Assembly: GCF_001457615.1 (NCBI RefSeq)
Contig: NZ_LN831024.1
Location: 1,110,001 to 1,142,000, forward strand
Origin: Pseudomonas aeruginosa
GTDB lineage: Bacteria > Pseudomonadota > Gammaproteobacteria > Pseudomonadales > Pseudomonadaceae
Reading direction: 5' to 3'
Length of the DNA stretch: 32,000 nucleotides
The translations under genes and the position numbers were made by a program. The notes beneath the pieces are model-generated. The model saw only the letters and a program-made list of their open reading frames with translations. It was not told the DNA's origin and ran no database searches. Shown here one piece after another: positions 1 to 30,234 of the stretch. Every line of letters begins with the position of its first letter. Within the stretch, counting starts at the first letter, position 1.

Positions 1-1328
<1,328 letters not shown>

Positions 1329-1357
1329 GCAGCGGATAGCGCCCGTGGCGTTGGTCG

Positions 1358-1397
1358 CCATGCAGAAAGGCCACCCTCGGGTGGCCTTTCTGCATGG
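1358..1397. terminator. Perfect ~19-bp GC-rich hairpin between convergent eddB and the immunity gene; probably a bidirectional transcription stop or RNA-stabilising stem
   Basis: ccatgcagaaaggccaccc (1358-1376) pairs with gggtggcctttctgcatgg (1379-1397). No flanking T-run on either strand, so it is not a canonical intrinsic terminator. Confidence 0.5.
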
Positions 1398-1408
1398 CAC
1401 GTGGGCCT

Positions 1409-1488
1409 GTAGGGCGAATAACCGCTTGCGGTTATCCGCCGTTGTGGCGGGATCTCGGCGGATAACGCCGGTGGCGTATTCGCCCCAC
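1409..1488. repeat. Inverted pair of ~32-nt REP-like palindromic units
   Basis: gtagggcgaataaccgcttgcggttatccgcc (1409-1440) and ggcggataacgccggtggcgtattcgccccac (1457-1488) are near reverse complements. Each unit has an internal dyad (ataaccgc/gcggttat). A related unit recurs at 4609-4642. Confidence 0.5.
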
Positions 1489-1519
1489 GGAACGCAGGCG
1501 GCTTTTGCTTCGTACGTCG

Positions 1520-2239
1520 TCAACCGCGCAGCGGCGGCAGGTAGCCCAGTTCCATCAGCTTGATGTCCGCTTCGCCGACGCGCTCGAAATGTTCGCGACG
1601 GGTTTCGTCCATCGGTTCGCGGCCGTTCAGCAGCAGGGTGCCACGGCCGGGAATGTCGACCAGCTCCGTAGCCGCCGGGAAGTCCGTGGCCCTTAGCGGA
1701 TGCGGGCAGAAGCCGATCCAGCCGATGCTGCGGCGGTCCGGGAAGGTCCGCTGGTGTACGAAGTACGCATGCGGAGCGAGCATGCCCCAGGTCGTTTCGG
1801 GCCAGATTTCCAGCGCCGCGAGGAAGATCGCGACGAAGGAGGAAGCCGGTGCGTCGAACACTTGCAGCAGGCTGCCGGCATCTTCCAACTGGAGCCTGGA
1901 CGAGACGGCCCTGCCGCTGGCCTCGTAGTCCAGCGACAACCCGCCCTTGAGCGGATCCTCCTCGCCGTTCCATAGCACCAGTTCCACCGCCCGGGTGCGT
2001 CGGTCACGCGACAGGGCCTTGGCGAGATCCTGGCGGTGCTCGGTGACGTTGTGGCTGAGGGCATCGCGCAGGGAGTCGCCGCACAGGTACCAGTTCTCCA
2101 GCACCGGATGGAGGGGCGCGAGGGCATCGAGGAAGCGCTCTATCCGTTGCAGGTGCTGGTCGTCGTCCAGTTCGAGGAGCCGTGCCGGATCGAAGTACAG
2201 CTCGAATATGTAGCGCCTGAAAGCCTTGGCGTCCGTCAT
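1520..2239 (-). CDS. tsiT: Cognate immunity protein for the upstream REase-fold T6SS toxin (TsiT-like), 239 aa
   Basis: ATG at 2239 overlaps the toxin stop as ATGA (2236-2239). It is in frame with the track ORF 1520-2662, whose first 141 residues are Arg/Gly-rich junk. The product starts MTDAKAFRRYIFELYFDP, has no signal peptide, and sits immediately 3' of the toxin. The name is from memory of PA3908. Confidence 0.75.
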   Translation of the reverse strand: MTDAKAFRRYIFELYFDPARLLELDDDQHLQRIERFLDALAPLHPVLENWYLCGDSLRDALSHNVTEHRQDLAKALSRDRRTRAVELVLWNGEEDPLKGGLSLDYEASGRAVSSRLQLEDAGSLLQVFDAPASSFVAIFLAALEIWPETTWGMLAPHAYFVHQRTFPDRRSIGWIGFCPHPLRATDFPAATELVDIPGRGTLLLNGREPMDETRREHFERVGEADIKLMELGYLPPLRG

Positions 2240-3020
2240 GCGCAATACCCCGGGTTCTCTTCGCAAAACCTTTTCATCTCTTCCTGTTCCTTCGCGCGGG
2301 TTTCCTGGTAGTCGTCGTGCTCGTCCGTTCCCGGCATCGGATTCCAGAATGCCTTCAGGTTGGCCAGTCCCATGCGCAGGTACTCCGCGGCGCAGTACTC
2401 GTAGACGATCCGCTGCAGGAAGTGCCATTCGACGAACACCGGCGGGGTCGGTCGGGCCTTGTCGCTGTGGACCTCGGCCTTCTGCAGCAGGTCCGACTTC
2501 ACCTTGGCCCGCGCCCAGGGCCTGGGCACGCCGAGCAGCGGGACGAACAGGAAGGCGTAGTTGGCCTTCGCCTCCAGCAGGGTGCAGCGCGGCTCGTCGA
2601 AGCCGTCCCACCAGGTGCCGCTCCAGAACCATTCGTGGGGAAACGGGAAATTGGTCACCCACTGCTGGTAGCGCGCGGACAGGTCCGACATGCTGTGGCC
2701 CTTGCCGTTATTGGCGATGGCCATTTCGCCCCGGGACGGCGGGCACTCCACGCAGTCCTTGTCGCGGCCCTGGCTCTTGCTGCAATCGCGCTCGGCTTCC
2801 CGGGTCCGGTCGCGGCTCAGCGTGCCGGTCTCGGTCCTGGGCAGGGTCTGCGGAACCGGCATCGGACGCGGTACCGGCCTGGGCAGCGCGCCGGGGCCGG
2901 TCGCGGCAGCGGGCGCGGCGCCGGCATCGGCAAGTGCGGCCGGGGCGGCGCGGGTAGTTCGAAGGGCAGCCGCGGACCCATGCGGGGCAGCGGTCGGAAA
3001 AGCGCGCCTATGCCGCTCAT
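2236..3020 (-). CDS. tseT: T6SS nuclease effector (TseT-like, Tox-REase-5-type restriction-endonuclease fold) with a Pro-rich N-terminal region; the reading frame is interrupted near 2890-2900
   Basis: The C-terminal domain (frame of track ORF 2236-3396) carries the D...ExK motif WWDGFDEPRCTLLEAKANY. The only RBS-coupled start is ATG 3020 (GGGGAG, 6-nt spacer, ATGA overlap with the upstream stop), and it lies in the frame of track ORF 2817-3053, which stops at 2817. The conservative in-frame alternative is ATG 2862 to 2236 (208 aa), with a poor RBS. 785 nt is not a multiple of 3. Confidence 0.7.
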
Positions 3021-3427
3021 GCCGGTCTCCCCGAGGTTTCGTACGCGCGCCATTTCTGGCTGGCCAGGCGAAACTCGACGATCCGTTCGTAGTCCTGGAA
3101 GCGTTGTTCCGGGCTGTCCGCCAGCGGCCGGCGCATGTGTGCGAGAAACGCCGGCGTGTCCTGGAAAGCGGGGAAGGCCAGGCCGTGCAGAAGAAAGCGT
3201 TCGATCGTCCCGGGCTCTTCGATACCCAGTTCCAGCGCCGTCGCGCGCAGCTCGCCGAGTTGCCGGATGGCGGGCAGCAGGCCGCGTCGTTCGAGCCAGG
3301 CGGGAGCCTCCCGGCGTACCTCCAGCAGGACCCGCTCGATGACTTCGTCGTCGCGGACCCGCTGCAGGCGATCCAGTTGGCCGGCATCCAGTTCAAGCAT
3401 CGGCGGTCCGCTCCGTTTCCCGGTCAT
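3017..3427 (-). CDS. Small acidic helical accessory protein (co-TecT-like co-chaperone)
   Basis: 136-aa ORF. The alternative start ATG 3400 (GGAG 10 nt upstream) overlaps the chaperone stop as ATGCTTGA. The stop overlaps the toxin start as ATGA. The functional call rests on position between the DUF4123 gene and the toxin, plus memory of PA3906. Confidence 0.65.
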   Translation of the reverse strand: MTGKRSGPPMLELDAGQLDRLQRVRDDEVIERVLLEVRREAPAWLERRGLLPAIRQLGELRATALELGIEEPGTIERFLLHGLAFPAFQDTPAFLAHMRRPLADSPEQRFQDYERIVEFRLASQKWRAYETSGRPA

Positions 3428-3920
3428 AGACGAGATAGCCGCCCTGCAGGGGCTGCCAGACCTGCCAACGCTCCAGCGGCGCCATCACTTGCGTCCATTG
3501 CCGCGCGGTCATGACCTGTTCCAGCGCCCGGCGCACTTCCGGGCTGTAGTAGCGCAACAGCGCCCGGCGGCCGTCGGGCATGCGGGTGAAGAGCAGCCCG
3601 GCGAAGTGTTTCGCGAGGTTTTCGAAGGACGCCCGGCTCCACAGCCAGGAGGCCATGGGCGAGCGGCGGTCCCAGTCGCGCAGCCAGCCGAGGAACTCGC
3701 CCGATGACGAAAGCGGGGCGCTGTCCATGAATTCGATCAGGACCGGCCCGGCATGGGCGATTTCGTCCAGCTCGCTCCCGGCCAGCAGCCAGCGCGAGCG
3801 GATTTCCCCCGCGGCCTTTTCCAGGCGGGTGTCCAGGGTCAGGTAGCGGGCGCCGTCCGCCAGGGCGAACAGGCGGCTGTCCGGCGTAGGCGCCGCGAGC
3901 GCCGGCTGGAGCCGGCTCAC
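3393..3920 (-). CDS. tecT: DUF4123-family T6SS effector chaperone (TecT-like), 175 aa if started at GTG 3920
   Basis: DUF4123-like blocks: LFALADGA, GPVLIEF, MPDGRRALLRYYSPEV. GTG at 3920 overlaps the PAAR stop as GTGA. The track's longer start (GTG 3995 or ATG 3986) would overlap the PAAR gene by about 70-80 nt. Confidence 0.8.
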   Translation of the reverse strand: MSRLQPALAAPTPDSRLFALADGARYLTLDTRLEKAAGEIRSRWLLAGSELDEIAHAGPVLIEFMDSAPLSSSGEFLGWLRDWDRRSPMASWLWSRASFENLAKHFAGLLFTRMPDGRRALLRYYSPEVRRALEQVMTARQWTQVMAPLERWQVWQPLQGGYLVYDRETERTADA

Positions 3921-4312
3921 GGTGCGCCGCCGAGGCTTTCCAGGGGCACCAGGGCCTGGTTGCGGCGTGCCGCCAGCAGCAGGCATTGCAGGCACAGCTT
4001 CGGTGGGGCGAGGGCGAGAGCGGGTGCGCCGCCGCCGCTGTTGCCGATCAGCACCGTGCCCGCCCCGCCGACCACCAGGTTGCCGTGGGTGCCGACGCTA
4101 CCTACCACGGTGGCGGGCTTGCCGTTGATCAGTACGTTGGCGATGACGTTGGCGCTGAGGGTGGCGCCGCAGGCGGTGGCGTCGCCCTGGCGGGCAGCGG
4201 ACCGATGGTCGAAGAAGACGTCGGGCGAGCCGCCGACGATCGGGTTGCTGCCGTGGCCCGGTAGCGGACACGCGGTCGGATCGCCCAGGCGCGCAGCGGG
4301 TTTGCCGCTCAT
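3917..4312 (-). CDS. paar4: PAAR-domain T6SS spike-tip protein with a ~39-aa C-terminal extension
   Basis: PAAR-type sequence AARLGDPTACPLPGHG...ARQGDATACG...GTVLIGN. ATG 4312 is preceded by AGGGA; the track's first Met is TTG 4318. The name is from memory of PA3904. Confidence 0.85.
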   Translation of the reverse strand: MSGKPAARLGDPTACPLPGHGSNPIVGGSPDVFFDHRSAARQGDATACGATLSANVIANVLINGKPATVVGSVGTHGNLVVGGAGTVLIGNSGGGAPALALAPPKLCLQCLLLAARRNQALVPLESLGGAP

Positions 4313-4337
4313 GCTCAAGTCCCTATGAGATAAACCC

Positions 4338-4355
4338 TGGCACTCTGCCGTGCCA
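4338..4355. promoter_or_regulatory. Inverted repeat TGGCAC-N6-GTGCCA in the PAAR operon leader; possible regulator site or RNA stem
   Basis: tggcac (4338-4343) and gtgcca (4350-4355), 26-43 nt upstream of ATG 4312. Confidence 0.25.
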
Positions 4356-4608
4356 CTCGGGGGCGGACAACCTATCTGAACTGCTCAGGAGGCACCTTCG
4401 GAAACGGCTTGGGCAACCGCGTCCTTGCCTGGTTGCGCTTGAAGGGATTTCCTACCTGGAAGTATCGTCACCCGCCTGCGAAAGGCGCAGGCGTACGGAG
4501 CGATGGCGCGATGGGGAGGGGAGCCTGGGAGGAGGGAAGGAGGCGTTTCGCACAGCGTCGCGTTCGCTTTGCCTGCGCAGGGGCTGTCCGCCGATACCGC
4601 GCTGGAGC

Positions 4609-4642
4609 GACGGATAGCCGCGATACGGTTATCCGCCCTGCG
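4609..4642. repeat. Single REP-like palindromic unit
   Basis: gacggatagccgcgatacggttatccgccctgc shares the ggttatccgcc core and internal dyad with the units at 1409-1488. Confidence 0.4.
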
Positions 4643-4655
4643 CCGAGACCGCCGC

Positions 4656-4690
4656 GGGAGGAGACAGGTAGGCTGTTCCTGGCTCCTCCC
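4656..4690 (-). terminator. Hairpin 7 nt downstream of the prfC stop
   Basis: gggaggagacagg (4656-4668) pairs with cctggctcctccc (4678-4690) with one mismatch. No U-tract follows. Confidence 0.5.
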
Positions 4691-4696
4691 GTGCGA

Positions 4697-6280
<1,584 letters not shown>

Positions 6281-26758: not shown

Positions 26759-27415
26759 TTACGGCCGGTCGAGCGCCTGGGCCATCCACTCGCGCACATG
26801 GCAGACGGCGAAGCGCGACGGGCTGCATTCGCCGTTGGCCATCGCCAGGCGCAGGCCGTCGACGTCGGCGCCGCGCACATAGGCGCTGGCGTCGCGCATG
26901 TCGTCCTCGTCGCCGAAACCGCCGTGCTGCATTTCCTCCAGCGCGGCCTGCTTGTCCCAGCCCTGCACGACGATGCGGTACATGGCGGCGAACAGTCCGG
27001 TGCGGTTGTTGCCGTGCTTGCAGTGCATCAGTACCGGGCCTTCGCGCTCGGCGGCCTGCAACTGGCGGAGGACGCTGAGCACCTCGGCGTCGTCGACCCG
27101 GTCGGCGTGGGTCGGCAGGCTGAGCACCCGCACCGGAGCCTGGCCCAGCCAGGCGCGGTCGTCGTCCTTGATGAAGCTGACCACCGTCTTCACCTGCAGG
27201 CGTTGCAGCAGCGCGACGCTCTGTGCGTTGGGCAGCGCGCTGCGATAGAGGGTGGGGCTCATGCGGTAGAGGTTGATCGACGGGTCGACCGCTTGCGCCC
27301 AGGCTGGCGAACGCGTGGCGGCAGTCTCGGCGGCATGCAGCGGGCCGCCGAGCAGGAAGGCGCCGAGCACGGCGGCGAGGAGCAGGCGGAGCCAGGCGAG
27401 CGGTGAACGGTGCAT
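26759..27415 (-). CDS. tpbA: Periplasmic dual-specificity/tyrosine phosphatase
   Basis: 218 aa. Signal peptide MHRSPLAWLRLLLAAVLGAFLLGGPLHA. PTP loop HCKHGNNRTG (CX5R). The symbol is from memory of PA3885. Confidence 0.88.
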   Translation of the reverse strand: MHRSPLAWLRLLLAAVLGAFLLGGPLHAAETAATRSPAWAQAVDPSINLYRMSPTLYRSALPNAQSVALLQRLQVKTVVSFIKDDDRAWLGQAPVRVLSLPTHADRVDDAEVLSVLRQLQAAEREGPVLMHCKHGNNRTGLFAAMYRIVVQGWDKQAALEEMQHGGFGDEDDMRDASAYVRGADVDGLRLAMANGECSPSRFAVCHVREWMAQALDRP

Positions 27416-27509
27416 GTCGGCCTCGTGCGGTGGGTGGCCAACACTAGGCGAGGGCGGGTCAAGCCGAGCTGAAGAGAATGTGAAGAATTCGTTGAGGCAG
27501 CCTCACCTG

Positions 27510-27896
27510 TCAGCGCAGGAAGAATCCATAGACCCTGCCGGAGAAGAACACCAGCAACAGCGCCGGATAGCACAGGTAGTGCAGCACCACGATGAGCAGT
27601 GCCGCCGGGCTGGGATCGCCTTTCAGCGAGGCGAGGCCGACCAGCAGCAGGTAAAGGACCCCGAGCACTCCGCCATACAGGGCGACCAGGCGCAAGCGCT
27701 CGCCCCAGGTCGGCCAGCGCCGCTGCGCGCGGGCGAACCACCAGGCCAGGCCGCCGGCGACCAGCGCGGCGATCAGCAGGCTGGCCGGCAGGCCGCCGAA
27801 GCGGACCACCCCGCGCAGCAGCACGTTGAGCAGGATCGCCGCGGCGATCCCGGCCAGGGCGTAGTAGCGGATGGGTACGGCAAGGCGGTCGCCCAT
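27510..27896 (-). CDS. Hypothetical 4-TM membrane protein (128 aa)
   Basis: ATG 27896 preceded by AGGAGA, 20 nt after the SDR stop. Hydrophobic throughout. This is only the last 128 codons of track ORF 27510-29159. Confidence 0.6.
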   Translation of the reverse strand: MGDRLAVPIRYYALAGIAAAILLNVLLRGVVRFGGLPASLLIAALVAGGLAWWFARAQRRWPTWGERLRLVALYGGVLGVLYLLLVGLASLKGDPSPAALLIVVLHYLCYPALLLVFFSGRVYGFFLR

Positions 27897-27916
27897 GGCG
27901 GTATCTCCTGGCGGTT

Positions 27917-28747
27917 TCAGAGGCGCGTGTCGAGACCGAAGCGCTTCTTCAGCAGCCGCTCCAGCAGGCCGCGCGGTAGCCAGCGGGCCAGCGCCGGCAG
28001 GGCCCGGCTGCCATTGCCGATGCGCACCAGCGGCGGGCGCGGACGGCGCTGCACGGCGGCTAGCAACTGGCGGGCGAAGTCTTCGGCGGACGTGGGATTG
28101 TCCTGGGATGCCGCGGCGCGCGCCTGGATCTGCCGGCGCAACGGCCACCAGGGCGAGCGTTCGTCGACCACGCTGTCCAGCTCGCGGCTGGCGCTGGCGC
28201 CGAAGTTCGAGGCGATGGCGCCCGGCTGCACTTCCAGCACCTCGACGCCGAACGGTGCCAGCTCCAGGCGCAGGGCATCGCTCAGCGCATGCACCGCGGC
28301 CTTGGAGGCGCAGTAGGCGCCGGCGAAGGGCGTGACCAGCACGCCGGAGACGCTGCCGACGTTCACCACCAGGCCGGACTTGCGCCTCAGTAGCGGGAAC
28401 AGCGCGCGGGTCACGCCGACCACGGCGAACACGTTGGTCTCGAACTGCCGGCGCATGGCTTCGACGCCGCCGTCCAGCAGCGGACCCATGGCGCCGTAGC
28501 CGGCGTTGTTGACCAGCACGTCGAGGCCGGCGGCTTCGACTCCCAGTTCCTCGGCCAGACGGGCCAGCGCGGCGGCGTCGTTGACGTCCAGTTGCACCGC
28601 CTGGAAGCCGGCCTCGGCCAGGGCACGCACGTCGTCCTCCTTGCGCGCGCTGGCCCAGACCCGGTAGCCGGCGCGCTGGAAGGCGTCGGCGAGGGCGCGG
28701 CCGATGCCGCTGGAGCAGCCGGTGACGAAGGCGACGGGTTGGCTCAT
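27917..28747 (-). CDS. Short-chain dehydrogenase/reductase (classical SDR)
   Basis: 276 aa. TGCSSGIGRA, NNAG, and the catalytic YCASKAA motif. Confidence 0.9.
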   Translation of the reverse strand: MSQPVAFVTGCSSGIGRALADAFQRAGYRVWASARKEDDVRALAEAGFQAVQLDVNDAAALARLAEELGVEAAGLDVLVNNAGYGAMGPLLDGGVEAMRRQFETNVFAVVGVTRALFPLLRRKSGLVVNVGSVSGVLVTPFAGAYCASKAAVHALSDALRLELAPFGVEVLEVQPGAIASNFGASASRELDSVVDERSPWWPLRRQIQARAAASQDNPTSAEDFARQLLAAVQRRPRPPLVRIGNGSRALPALARWLPRGLLERLLKKRFGLDTRL

Positions 28748-29598: not shown

Positions 29599-30063
29599 TC
29601 AGTTGCCGAAACGCCCGTCCAGGCGTTCGGCGCGGAATTCCAGGGTGCTGGCGCGATAGCCCGGACGCAGCGGCGGCAGCGGCAGGCAATCGTGCCAGCT
29701 GTCGCCGCCGAGCAGGGCGTTCGGCGCCCGGTAGCGCGGGCTGTCGAAGCTGGTGTCGGCCAGGTTGACGCTGTCGCCGGGGCGGTAGGCGGCGATCCTC
29801 CAGCGTAGCTCCAGCAACGGACGGTCGCTGCCGTTCTTCAGTTCGACCGCCAGCGGCCGGTCCACCGGACAGCGTTCCGGCGCATAGCTCAGGCGCAGTT
29901 CCTGGCGTTGCAGGTGGCGGCTTTCGTCGTTGTCCTGCCAGATCACCCAGGCCGCCACCAGGCCCAGCCCGGCGAGAGCCGCCAGGGAGACCGGCAGGGC
30001 CTTGGCCGGGTATCGGACGAGGAGGATGACCCAGGTGAGAACCAGCAGCGCACCGATCAGCAT
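29599..30063 (-). CDS. Hypothetical protein with two N-terminal TM helices and a soluble C-terminal domain
   Basis: I prefer ATG 30063 (AAGGA 7 nt upstream) over the track start 30096. The stop is 15 nt before the methyltransferase start. Confidence 0.6.
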   Translation of the reverse strand: MLIGALLVLTWVILLVRYPAKALPVSLAALAGLGLVAAWVIWQDNDESRHLQRQELRLSYAPERCPVDRPLAVELKNGSDRPLLELRWRIAAYRPGDSVNLADTSFDSPRYRAPNALLGGDSWHDCLPLPPLRPGYRASTLEFRAERLDGRFGN

Positions 30064-30234
30064 TGAAATGTCCTTTCTTCGAAGCCGAGGGGACATCCTA
30101 GCGCACTGCTGCGTATCGCAGGCGGTACGGGCACGCTTACGCGGCGGAGGCGCCGCGATATGCGCAAGGGAGGCCGAAAGTCGGGGATGCGGGTTTCGGC
30201 AGGCTGGGGATAGCCGCCGCCCCCGGCCGCGCCG

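Follow-up and report, generated by a model that had tools for sequence, protein, structure and literature searches.

A frameshifted tseT gene in a PAAR4–TecT–co-TecT–TseT–TsiT type VI secretion cassette of Pseudomonas aeruginosa

Gene organization of the locus

The DNA analyzed here, referred to as the window, is a stretch of 32,000 nucleotides of the Pseudomonas aeruginosa contig NZ_LN831024.1 (positions 1,110,001 to 1,142,000). It harbors a five-gene operon for a type VI secretion system (T6SS) spike tip, two chaperones, a nuclease toxin and an immunity protein, and the toxin gene, tseT, is frameshifted in the sequence as given. Judged from gene content and protein matches, the locus is almost certainly the P. 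aeruginosa paar4–tecT–co-tecT–tseT–tsiT operon (PA3904–PA3908 type). Reading of positions 1400–4720 together with the list of open reading frames (ORFs) revealed five co-directional minus-strand genes flanked by eddB and prfC, at the positions and between the flanks that a first-pass annotation of this DNA had given:

3917–4312, minus strand: paar4 (PA3904 type), 131-amino-acid (aa) PAAR spike-tip protein, PF05488; start ATG 4312
3393–3920, minus strand: tecT (PA3905 type), 175-aa DUF4123 adaptor/chaperone; start GTG 3920 overlaps the paar4 stop (GTGA)
3017–3400, minus strand: co-tecT (PA3906 type), 127-aa co-chaperone; start ATG 3400 overlaps the tecT stop (ATGCTTGA)
2236–3020, minus strand: tseT as a whole, start ATG 3020; interrupted
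1520–2239, minus strand: tsiT (PA3908 type), 239-aa Imm52 immunity protein, intact; start ATG 2239 overlaps the tseT stop (ATGA)

All four gene junctions overlap (GTGA, ATGCTTGA, ATGA and ATGA), which points to translational coupling. In an exact-sequence look-up PAAR4, TecT, co-TecT and TsiT were identical to P. aeruginosa database proteins, and the gene order from prfC to eddB was the same in 20 other P. aeruginosa contigs. The P. aeruginosa locus L020 differed from the window at 14 of 2781 positions, a nucleotide divergence of about 0.5%. A Pfam profile search, as proposed with the first-pass annotation, placed the PAAR, DUF4123, Tox-REase-5 and Imm52 matches above their gathering scores (27, 25.8, 25 and 25 bits, respectively), and the peptide blocks quoted there were all present in the translations.

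The likeness to PA3904–PA3908 of PAO1 comprises the same five genes in the same order, the prfC and eddB flanks of a species-level locus, the UniRef names of TecT and co-TecT with the PAO1 RepIDs Q9HXA8 and Q9HXA7, and a TseT nuclease domain that is 100% identical. The difference lies in tseT, which in the window carries a tract of four cytosines (C4) instead of five (C5), so that the 261-aa ORF is split. The PAO1 genes PA3904–PA3908 were reportedly described as PAAR4, TecT, co-TecT, TseT and TsiT by Burkinshaw et al. 2018 (Nat Microbiol 3:632), as cited in PMC6684961, PMC11925235 and PMC10586262. The earlier assignment to this locus agrees with the exact protein matches, NCBI names, PDB entries and published papers. 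The operon is already characterized in the literature, as the annotation had anticipated in calling it probably not undescribed, and there is no novelty in its genes, delivery route, regulation or toxin–immunity structure. To the known operon the analysis adds the frameshifted tseT, a new start for co-tecT and the revised view of co-TecT taken from the literature; the locus is otherwise ordinary. Overall, it is very probably best explained as a stand-alone H2-T6SS cargo cassette of the PA3904–PA3908 type with a one-nucleotide deletion in tseT.

A one-nucleotide deletion splits the tseT reading frame

The frameshift in tseT is present in the sequence as given. It divides the gene as follows:

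2817–3020, minus strand: 5' part of tseT, 43 native codons followed by 24 out-of-frame codons; stop at 2817–2819
2893–2896, minus strand: poly-C tract, C4 (GGGG on the plus strand), the one-nucleotide deletion site at which the tseT frame shifts
2236–2892, minus strand: 3' part of tseT, canonical codons 44–261 in the shifted frame, with the Tox-REase-5 domain

The start codon ATG 3020 overlaps the co-tecT stop (ATGA) and has a GGGAG Shine–Dalgarno sequence in front of it. The frame that it opens closes at 2817, having run for 67 codons; another frame encodes the nuclease domain. The first-pass annotation had described a restriction-endonuclease-fold toxin behind a proline-rich N-terminus. The D...ExK motif and the domain are indeed there, but they do not share one ORF with that N-terminus, and the frameshift spreads the proline-rich region across two frames. 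Canonical TseT has 261 aa and begins MSGIGALFRPLPRMGPRLPFE (P0002); the N-terminus in the window is identical to that of P0002 and of the loci L011–L022. Insertion of a single C yields a 261-aa ORF whose first 80 residues are those of the L011–L022 alleles and whose last 208 residues are those of database TseT. Because the deletion parts the 43 native N-terminal codons from the nuclease domain, the 261-aa effector is not encodable as written, and no uninterrupted 261-codon ORF runs from the start that overlaps the co-tecT stop.

The nuclease domain itself is well preserved. It matched Tox-REase-5 (PF15648) with 93.3 bits (E 1e-26), and the catalytic residues D139 (2605–2607), E150 (2572–2574) and K152 (2566–2568) are present in the window and invariant across 16 aligned TseT homologues, as expected of a Tox-REase-5 / PD-(D/E)xK nuclease. 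The C-terminal 208 aa match a database protein exactly, with 100% identity to TseT, inside a cluster that NCBI names TseT. The PDB entries 7DYM and 9OZ0 are TseT–TsiT complexes (TseT chains 7DYM_A and 9OZ0_B), and the crystallized core of 9OZ0_B begins at residue 84. The crystallized chain 7DYM_A has 241 aa and lacks linker residues 47–66 relative to P0002; the boundaries of the missing stretch fall between similar GAL/GTL codons, and the deletion may be engineered or natural. Other members of the Tox-REase-5 family are the Burkholderia gladioli T6SS effectors TseTBg1 and TseTBg2, which likewise need the catalytic D and K. They differ in their reported DNase plus RNase activity and in a context with a neighboring Dam methylase and two immunity genes (PMC9990079), and they were not among the sequence matches to the window toxin.

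The N-terminal region of TseT is also conserved across species, with R9, R13, G15, P25, P31 and others nearly invariant, which argues that the canonical start at ATG 3020 is the real one. This region may serve effector loading, since co-TecT is published to bind TseT (PMC11582642). The linker between the N-terminus and the nuclease domain contains an internal repeat: a 47-nt unit occurs in 2.1 copies at 2857–2953. A 386-aa ORF in frame B, starting at TTG 3396, was considered as the toxin gene and rejected: across co-tecT it runs in the wrong frame, and its N-terminus has no counterpart among the homologues.

Length of the C tract in other strains

In the window the tract has the context CCGG-CCCC-GGCG (tract at 2893–2896). 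For comparison, 22 further P. aeruginosa loci were aligned, 20 of which cover the tract site; L005 has an assembly gap there and L007 a 70-nt deletion across it. C5 was found in 17 of the 20 covering loci, C4 in 2/20 (L008, L009) and C7 in one (1/20, L004). In a sample of 12 loci chosen without bias towards an allele, ten retrieved via co-TecT and two from metagenomes, the 261-aa TseT was encoded in every one (12/12). The metagenome scan returned only two contigs with the tract, both C5, which is too few for an allele frequency.

An internal start, ATG 2862 (M54), gives a 208-aa product that is annotated in databases on 288 contigs. We examined ten loci retrieved via this annotated product. 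Three of the ten carried intact C5 genes in which the gene caller had picked the internal ATG, two had assembly gaps exactly at the tract (L001, L005), and five had N-terminal frameshifts, namely C4 twice, C7 (L004), a 70-bp deletion (L007) and a one-nucleotide deletion (L010). Database entries for a 208-aa 'TseT' are hence of two kinds, gene-caller artefacts where the gene is intact and true N-terminal frameshift alleles. The gap in L001 is a run of N, that in L005 (CP020659.1) a six-frame-stop scaffolding linker (CACACACTTAATTAATTAAGTGTGTG), and both lie in the proline-rich tseT linker, which indicates that this stretch is hard to sequence.

We cautiously favor reading the C4 frameshift as a real allele and not as a base-call error. 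C4 is the only coding indel relative to L011 over 14 kb and the only indel of any kind relative to L012 over 6.6 kb. Domain matches were full-length for all the other ORFs scanned in the window, and the scan of the 32 kb showed no further broken gene. Frameshifts that arose independently in this N-terminal region in other assemblies (C7 in L004, the 70-bp deletion in L007 and the one-nucleotide deletion in L010) make real inactivation of the toxin plausible. It is nevertheless quite possible that the locus is intact in the organism, that C4 reflects a homopolymer miscalled or misassembled, and that a normal 261-aa TseT is made. Several observations weigh on this side and against a real null allele. 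The toxin domain, the immunity gene and the chaperones show no other defect, and the remaining tseT codons are identical to the common allele; the change would therefore be either very recent or an error. The tract is a homopolymer in a very GC-rich, repetitive linker that was left unclosed in the assemblies of L001 and L005, and errors are evident in the assembly of one other C4 carrier, L009, in which many genes are broken. Intact alleles dominate, as the unbiased sample demonstrates. In addition, T6SS dependence, toxicity and protection rest on the literature and not on the window.

Were the frameshift real, the toxin domain could in principle still be made from ATG 2862, as the 208-aa product, or by re-initiation after the 2817 stop; the outcome may be a cytoplasmic nuclease neutralized by TsiT, secreted or not. 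The 208-aa product is the call of annotation pipelines on the 288 contigs mentioned above, the frame is open from 2862 to 2236 with a normal coding third-position GC content (GC3 0.89), and the 9OZ0_B core, starting at residue 84, indicates that the domain folds without the N-terminus. We nonetheless regard this as unlikely. No Shine–Dalgarno sequence was found upstream of ATG 2862, in contrast to the GGGAG before ATG 3020; the conserved N-terminal region is missing from the 208-aa product; and the three calls on intact C5 genes among the ten examined reveal that the annotation is partly a gene-caller artefact.

That the C tract is a contingency switch, or that –1 slippage on CCC-CGG restores the frame so that the toxin is tunable and not lost, is extremely improbable: three tract lengths (C4, C5 and C7) do occur at one site in different strains, and tRNA-Pro slipping back by one base on the tract would produce precisely the canonical PAPGAL, but known phase-variable homopolymers are much longer than 4–5 bases, an X-XXY-YYZ heptamer is absent, the downstream RNA fold is ordinary (z = –1.68, 12 of 200 shuffles folding as well), and C5 is near fixation in the population. 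Likewise, we consider it very doubtful that the tract in the proline linker is a recurrent on/off site for TseT delivery with immunity kept, or that low-level –1 slippage yields full-length TseT.

Conservation of the cassette in other species

A GTDB scan returned 16 loci from other Pseudomonas and Stutzerimonas species and no P. aeruginosa representative. The five-gene cassette was found in the same order in all 16 loci, and the genes around it vary between species. No long co-directional ORF was present upstream of the PAAR gene in the 14 loci inspected. Conservation of the five genes within differing surroundings argues for a self-contained cassette of which co-TecT is an obligatory part.

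In Stutzerimonas nitrititolerans, 'DUF4123' proteins of 155–161 aa (P0030–P0044) consist of the N-terminal half of TecT joined to the last ~85 residues of TseT, without the D...ExK core. By sequence, this TecT–TseT chimera resembles what a deletion within the cassette would leave behind. In strain GL14 of the same species (L038, 1763–2522), matches to tseT occur in two frames, representing another broken toxin gene. Tandem tsiT-like genes were observed downstream of tseT in several loci, two each in L025 (8776–10274) and L027 (8776–10273) and four in L037 (8615–11800). These arrays are divergent immunity paralogues with 35–45% identity to TsiT.

Spike tip, adaptor, co-chaperone and immunity protein

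PAAR4 matched PAAR_motif (PF05488) with 65.3 bits (E 6e-18). The match to the NCBIfam model T6SS_PAAR_dom was weaker (35.6 bits, under the equivalog cut-off of 124). Its exact match is a P. aeruginosa 'PAAR domain-containing protein' found on more than 1000 contigs. A C-terminal extension of ~35 aa follows the PAAR core of ~95 aa, and solved PAAR chains (93–99 aa; 4JIV_D and 4JIW_D aligned) cover only residues 2–90 of PAAR4. Both the Pfam score and this alignment bear out the earlier description of a spike tip with an extra C-terminal tail. The tail is kept in all 16 homologous loci of other species (tblastn coverage 1–128 or more of 131). The extension past the core is that of the PAAR4 subtype; the docking of TecT on this tail is taken from the literature (PMC11582642). 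Within paar4, a full-length match to the Rfam family 'Pseudomonas sRNA P10' (RF01668, a small RNA (sRNA) family; 77.6 bits) was observed at 4218–4289 on the minus strand. It lies wholly inside the coding sequence, on the coding strand at about codons 8–32, and contains a terminator-like hairpin (4238–4219). The Rfam family may have been built on conserved PAAR coding sequence, not on a separate sRNA.

The DUF4123 blocks reported for the second gene product are present, and TecT matched DUF4123 (PF13503) with 95.4 bits (E 4e-27) over the full profile (1–119/119). Its exact match carries a UniRef name with the RepID Q9HXA8_PSEAE. As in other DUF4123 adaptors, tecT sits between a spike gene, paar4, and an effector gene, tseT. 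One-piece DUF4123 adaptors (Tap-1/TEC family, Tla1, Tap14) tether effectors to VgrG. TecT resembles them in spanning the full Pfam profile and in being encoded between spike gene and effector, but it has only 175 aa and matches only positions 30–152 of the 245-position NCBIfam Tla1 model. It also differs in docking on the PAAR tail, not on VgrG, and in that effector binding falls to the separate 127-aa co-TecT (PMC11582642).

For co-TecT, the exact match is a 127-aa sequence with a UniRef name and the RepID Q9HXA7_PSEAE. A 136-aa version starting at ATG 3427 was absent from the protein collection searched by exact-sequence look-up. All 12 co-TecT homologues extracted, from 12 of the 16 other-species loci, start M[LF]EL. 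The co-tecT start is hence most likely ATG 3400 and not 3427, which corrects the span of 3017–3427 assigned earlier. Sequence searches with co-TecT gave no Pfam, NCBIfam or PDB match, and a HMMER search of 1.84 billion protein representatives found only seven cluster representatives. No fusion of co-TecT to DUF4123 or to any other intact protein was detected among these representatives; a lone 230-aa match (P0046) is a frameshifted read-through. In the other species co-TecT occupies the same position in 16/16 loci with 43–54% identity, as a stand-alone protein of ~120–128 aa.

In a published model, one DUF4123 adaptor is divided between two proteins. TecT is the lobe that attaches to the tail of PAAR4, and co-TecT is the C-terminal lobe, encoded by a gene of its own, that binds the toxin TseT (PMC11582642). 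The first-pass annotation had called the co-chaperone unrelated to the DUF4123 chaperone, a view at odds with its treatment as a split-off lobe in that work. The present data fit the split-adaptor model only indirectly. The TecT match covers just positions 30–152 of the 245 positions of Tla1, and no fusion is seen at the sequence level. An AlphaFold model of co-TecT, built from a shallow alignment, was too poor for a fold search (mean predicted local distance difference test score (pLDDT) 50, predicted template modeling score (pTM) 0.37).

TsiT matched Imm52 (PF15579) with 44.1 bits (E 2.5e-11), and its gene lies directly downstream of the toxin gene, as expected of an immunity protein. With the ATGA overlap between its start and the toxin stop, the effector–immunity layout claimed for this 239-aa product is confirmed. 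The exact match bears the NCBI name 'type VI secretion system immunity protein TsiT' and occurs on more than 1000 contigs. All 239 residues align with PDB chain 7DYM_B (E 4e-163), with 6JDP and 9OWG at the same level. Together, 7DYM, 9OZ0, 6JDP and 9OWG comprise TseT–TsiT complexes and TsiT alone.

Regulation, delivery and proposed mechanism

The operon promoter is expected in the intergenic region between paar4 and prfC:

4313–4696, minus strand: paar4–prfC intergenic, operon promoter region; LasR-responsive according to the literature only

A LasR binding site has been described upstream of PA3904-08, and a 384-bp fragment upstream of PA3904 drives a reporter (PMC10586262). The PA3904 promoter is in use as a LasR-responsive part (PMC3597704), expression of the whole operon falls under LasR inhibition (PMC10509696), and PA3904-08 are induced by iron and viral co-infection (PMC10586262). 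A sigma-70 consensus scan of 1300–4720, including the paar4–prfC intergenic region, detected no promoter, and a las box was not located. TseT is delivered by the H2-T6SS (PMC10586262), and delivery requires PAAR4, TecT, co-TecT, VgrG4b and VgrG6 (PMC6684961, PMC11925235). In PAO1 competition assays TseT was among the most potent effectors (bioRxiv 2022.04.11.487527, PMC10281587).

On this basis we read the five translationally coupled genes at this locus as a self-standing H2-T6SS cargo cassette, which according to published work is induced by LasR quorum sensing. In the published scheme, TecT, the conserved N-lobe of a DUF4123 adaptor, binds the C-terminal tail of PAAR4 and co-TecT the effector TseT, and the two together load TseT onto the PAAR4 tip of VgrG4b/VgrG6 spikes, whose genes lie outside the cassette at other sites of the genome. 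Once fired, TseT attacks the nucleic acid of the target cell with its PD-(D/E)xK nuclease domain, and TsiT, the Imm52 protein, protects sister cells by binding TseT. Specific to the window, the one-nucleotide deletion in the C5 tract of the proline-rich linker puts the nuclease domain out of frame.

A strain in which C4 is real would neither load nor deliver full-length TseT and would be disarmed yet immune, with intact TsiT, PAAR4 and both chaperones. If the deletion is real, the isolate has lost delivery of an effector that two studies rank among the strongest antibacterial effectors of P. aeruginosa, while remaining immune to it. Such a pattern is expected of a lineage that quits competing yet lives among armed kin.

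Sequence context of the cassette

The cassette is bordered by the following features:

4697–6280, minus strand: prfC, with GTP_EFTU and RF3_C matches
1357–1398, no strand: perfect 20-nt inverted repeat between the convergent eddB and tsiT, arms 1357–1376 and 1379–1398, 100% complementary
57–1328, plus strand: eddB-type nuclease/phosphatase, convergent, with an Exo_endo_phos match

The scan of the remaining candidate ORFs of the window, about 28, turned up neither vgrG nor hcp nor any further T6SS core family, in line with the earlier description of an 'orphan' module. The other families in the window comprise Ivy, genes of the fecA/fecR/fecI type, AraC and LysR regulators, an EamA transporter, a 2-hydroxyacid dehydrogenase, a fusaric-acid efflux set, an OpuC-type ABC transporter, NhaP, a HAD hydrolase, a tyrosine phosphatase, an SDR, a methyltransferase, a DGC-domain protein and a NarL/NarX-type two-component pair. 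The candidate ORFs 27273–28316 (plus strand), 27513–27914 (minus) and 29602–30096 (minus) had no Pfam match. The first two overlap the region of the SDR gene and may not be genuine genes.

From its position between convergent genes, the inverted repeat at 1357–1398 is probably a bidirectional terminator. The intergenic region between tsiT and eddB (1332–1498) also contains a 129-bp unit rich in inverted repeats, present in ~1.3 copies in the window, in 6.4 tandem copies in L006 (4355–5174) and in several copies in L001, L004, L005 and L009. This unit is a variable-number tandem repeat, and its 129-bp period is one that we take to equal that of a P. aeruginosa marker used in multiple-locus variable-number tandem-repeat analysis (MLVA).

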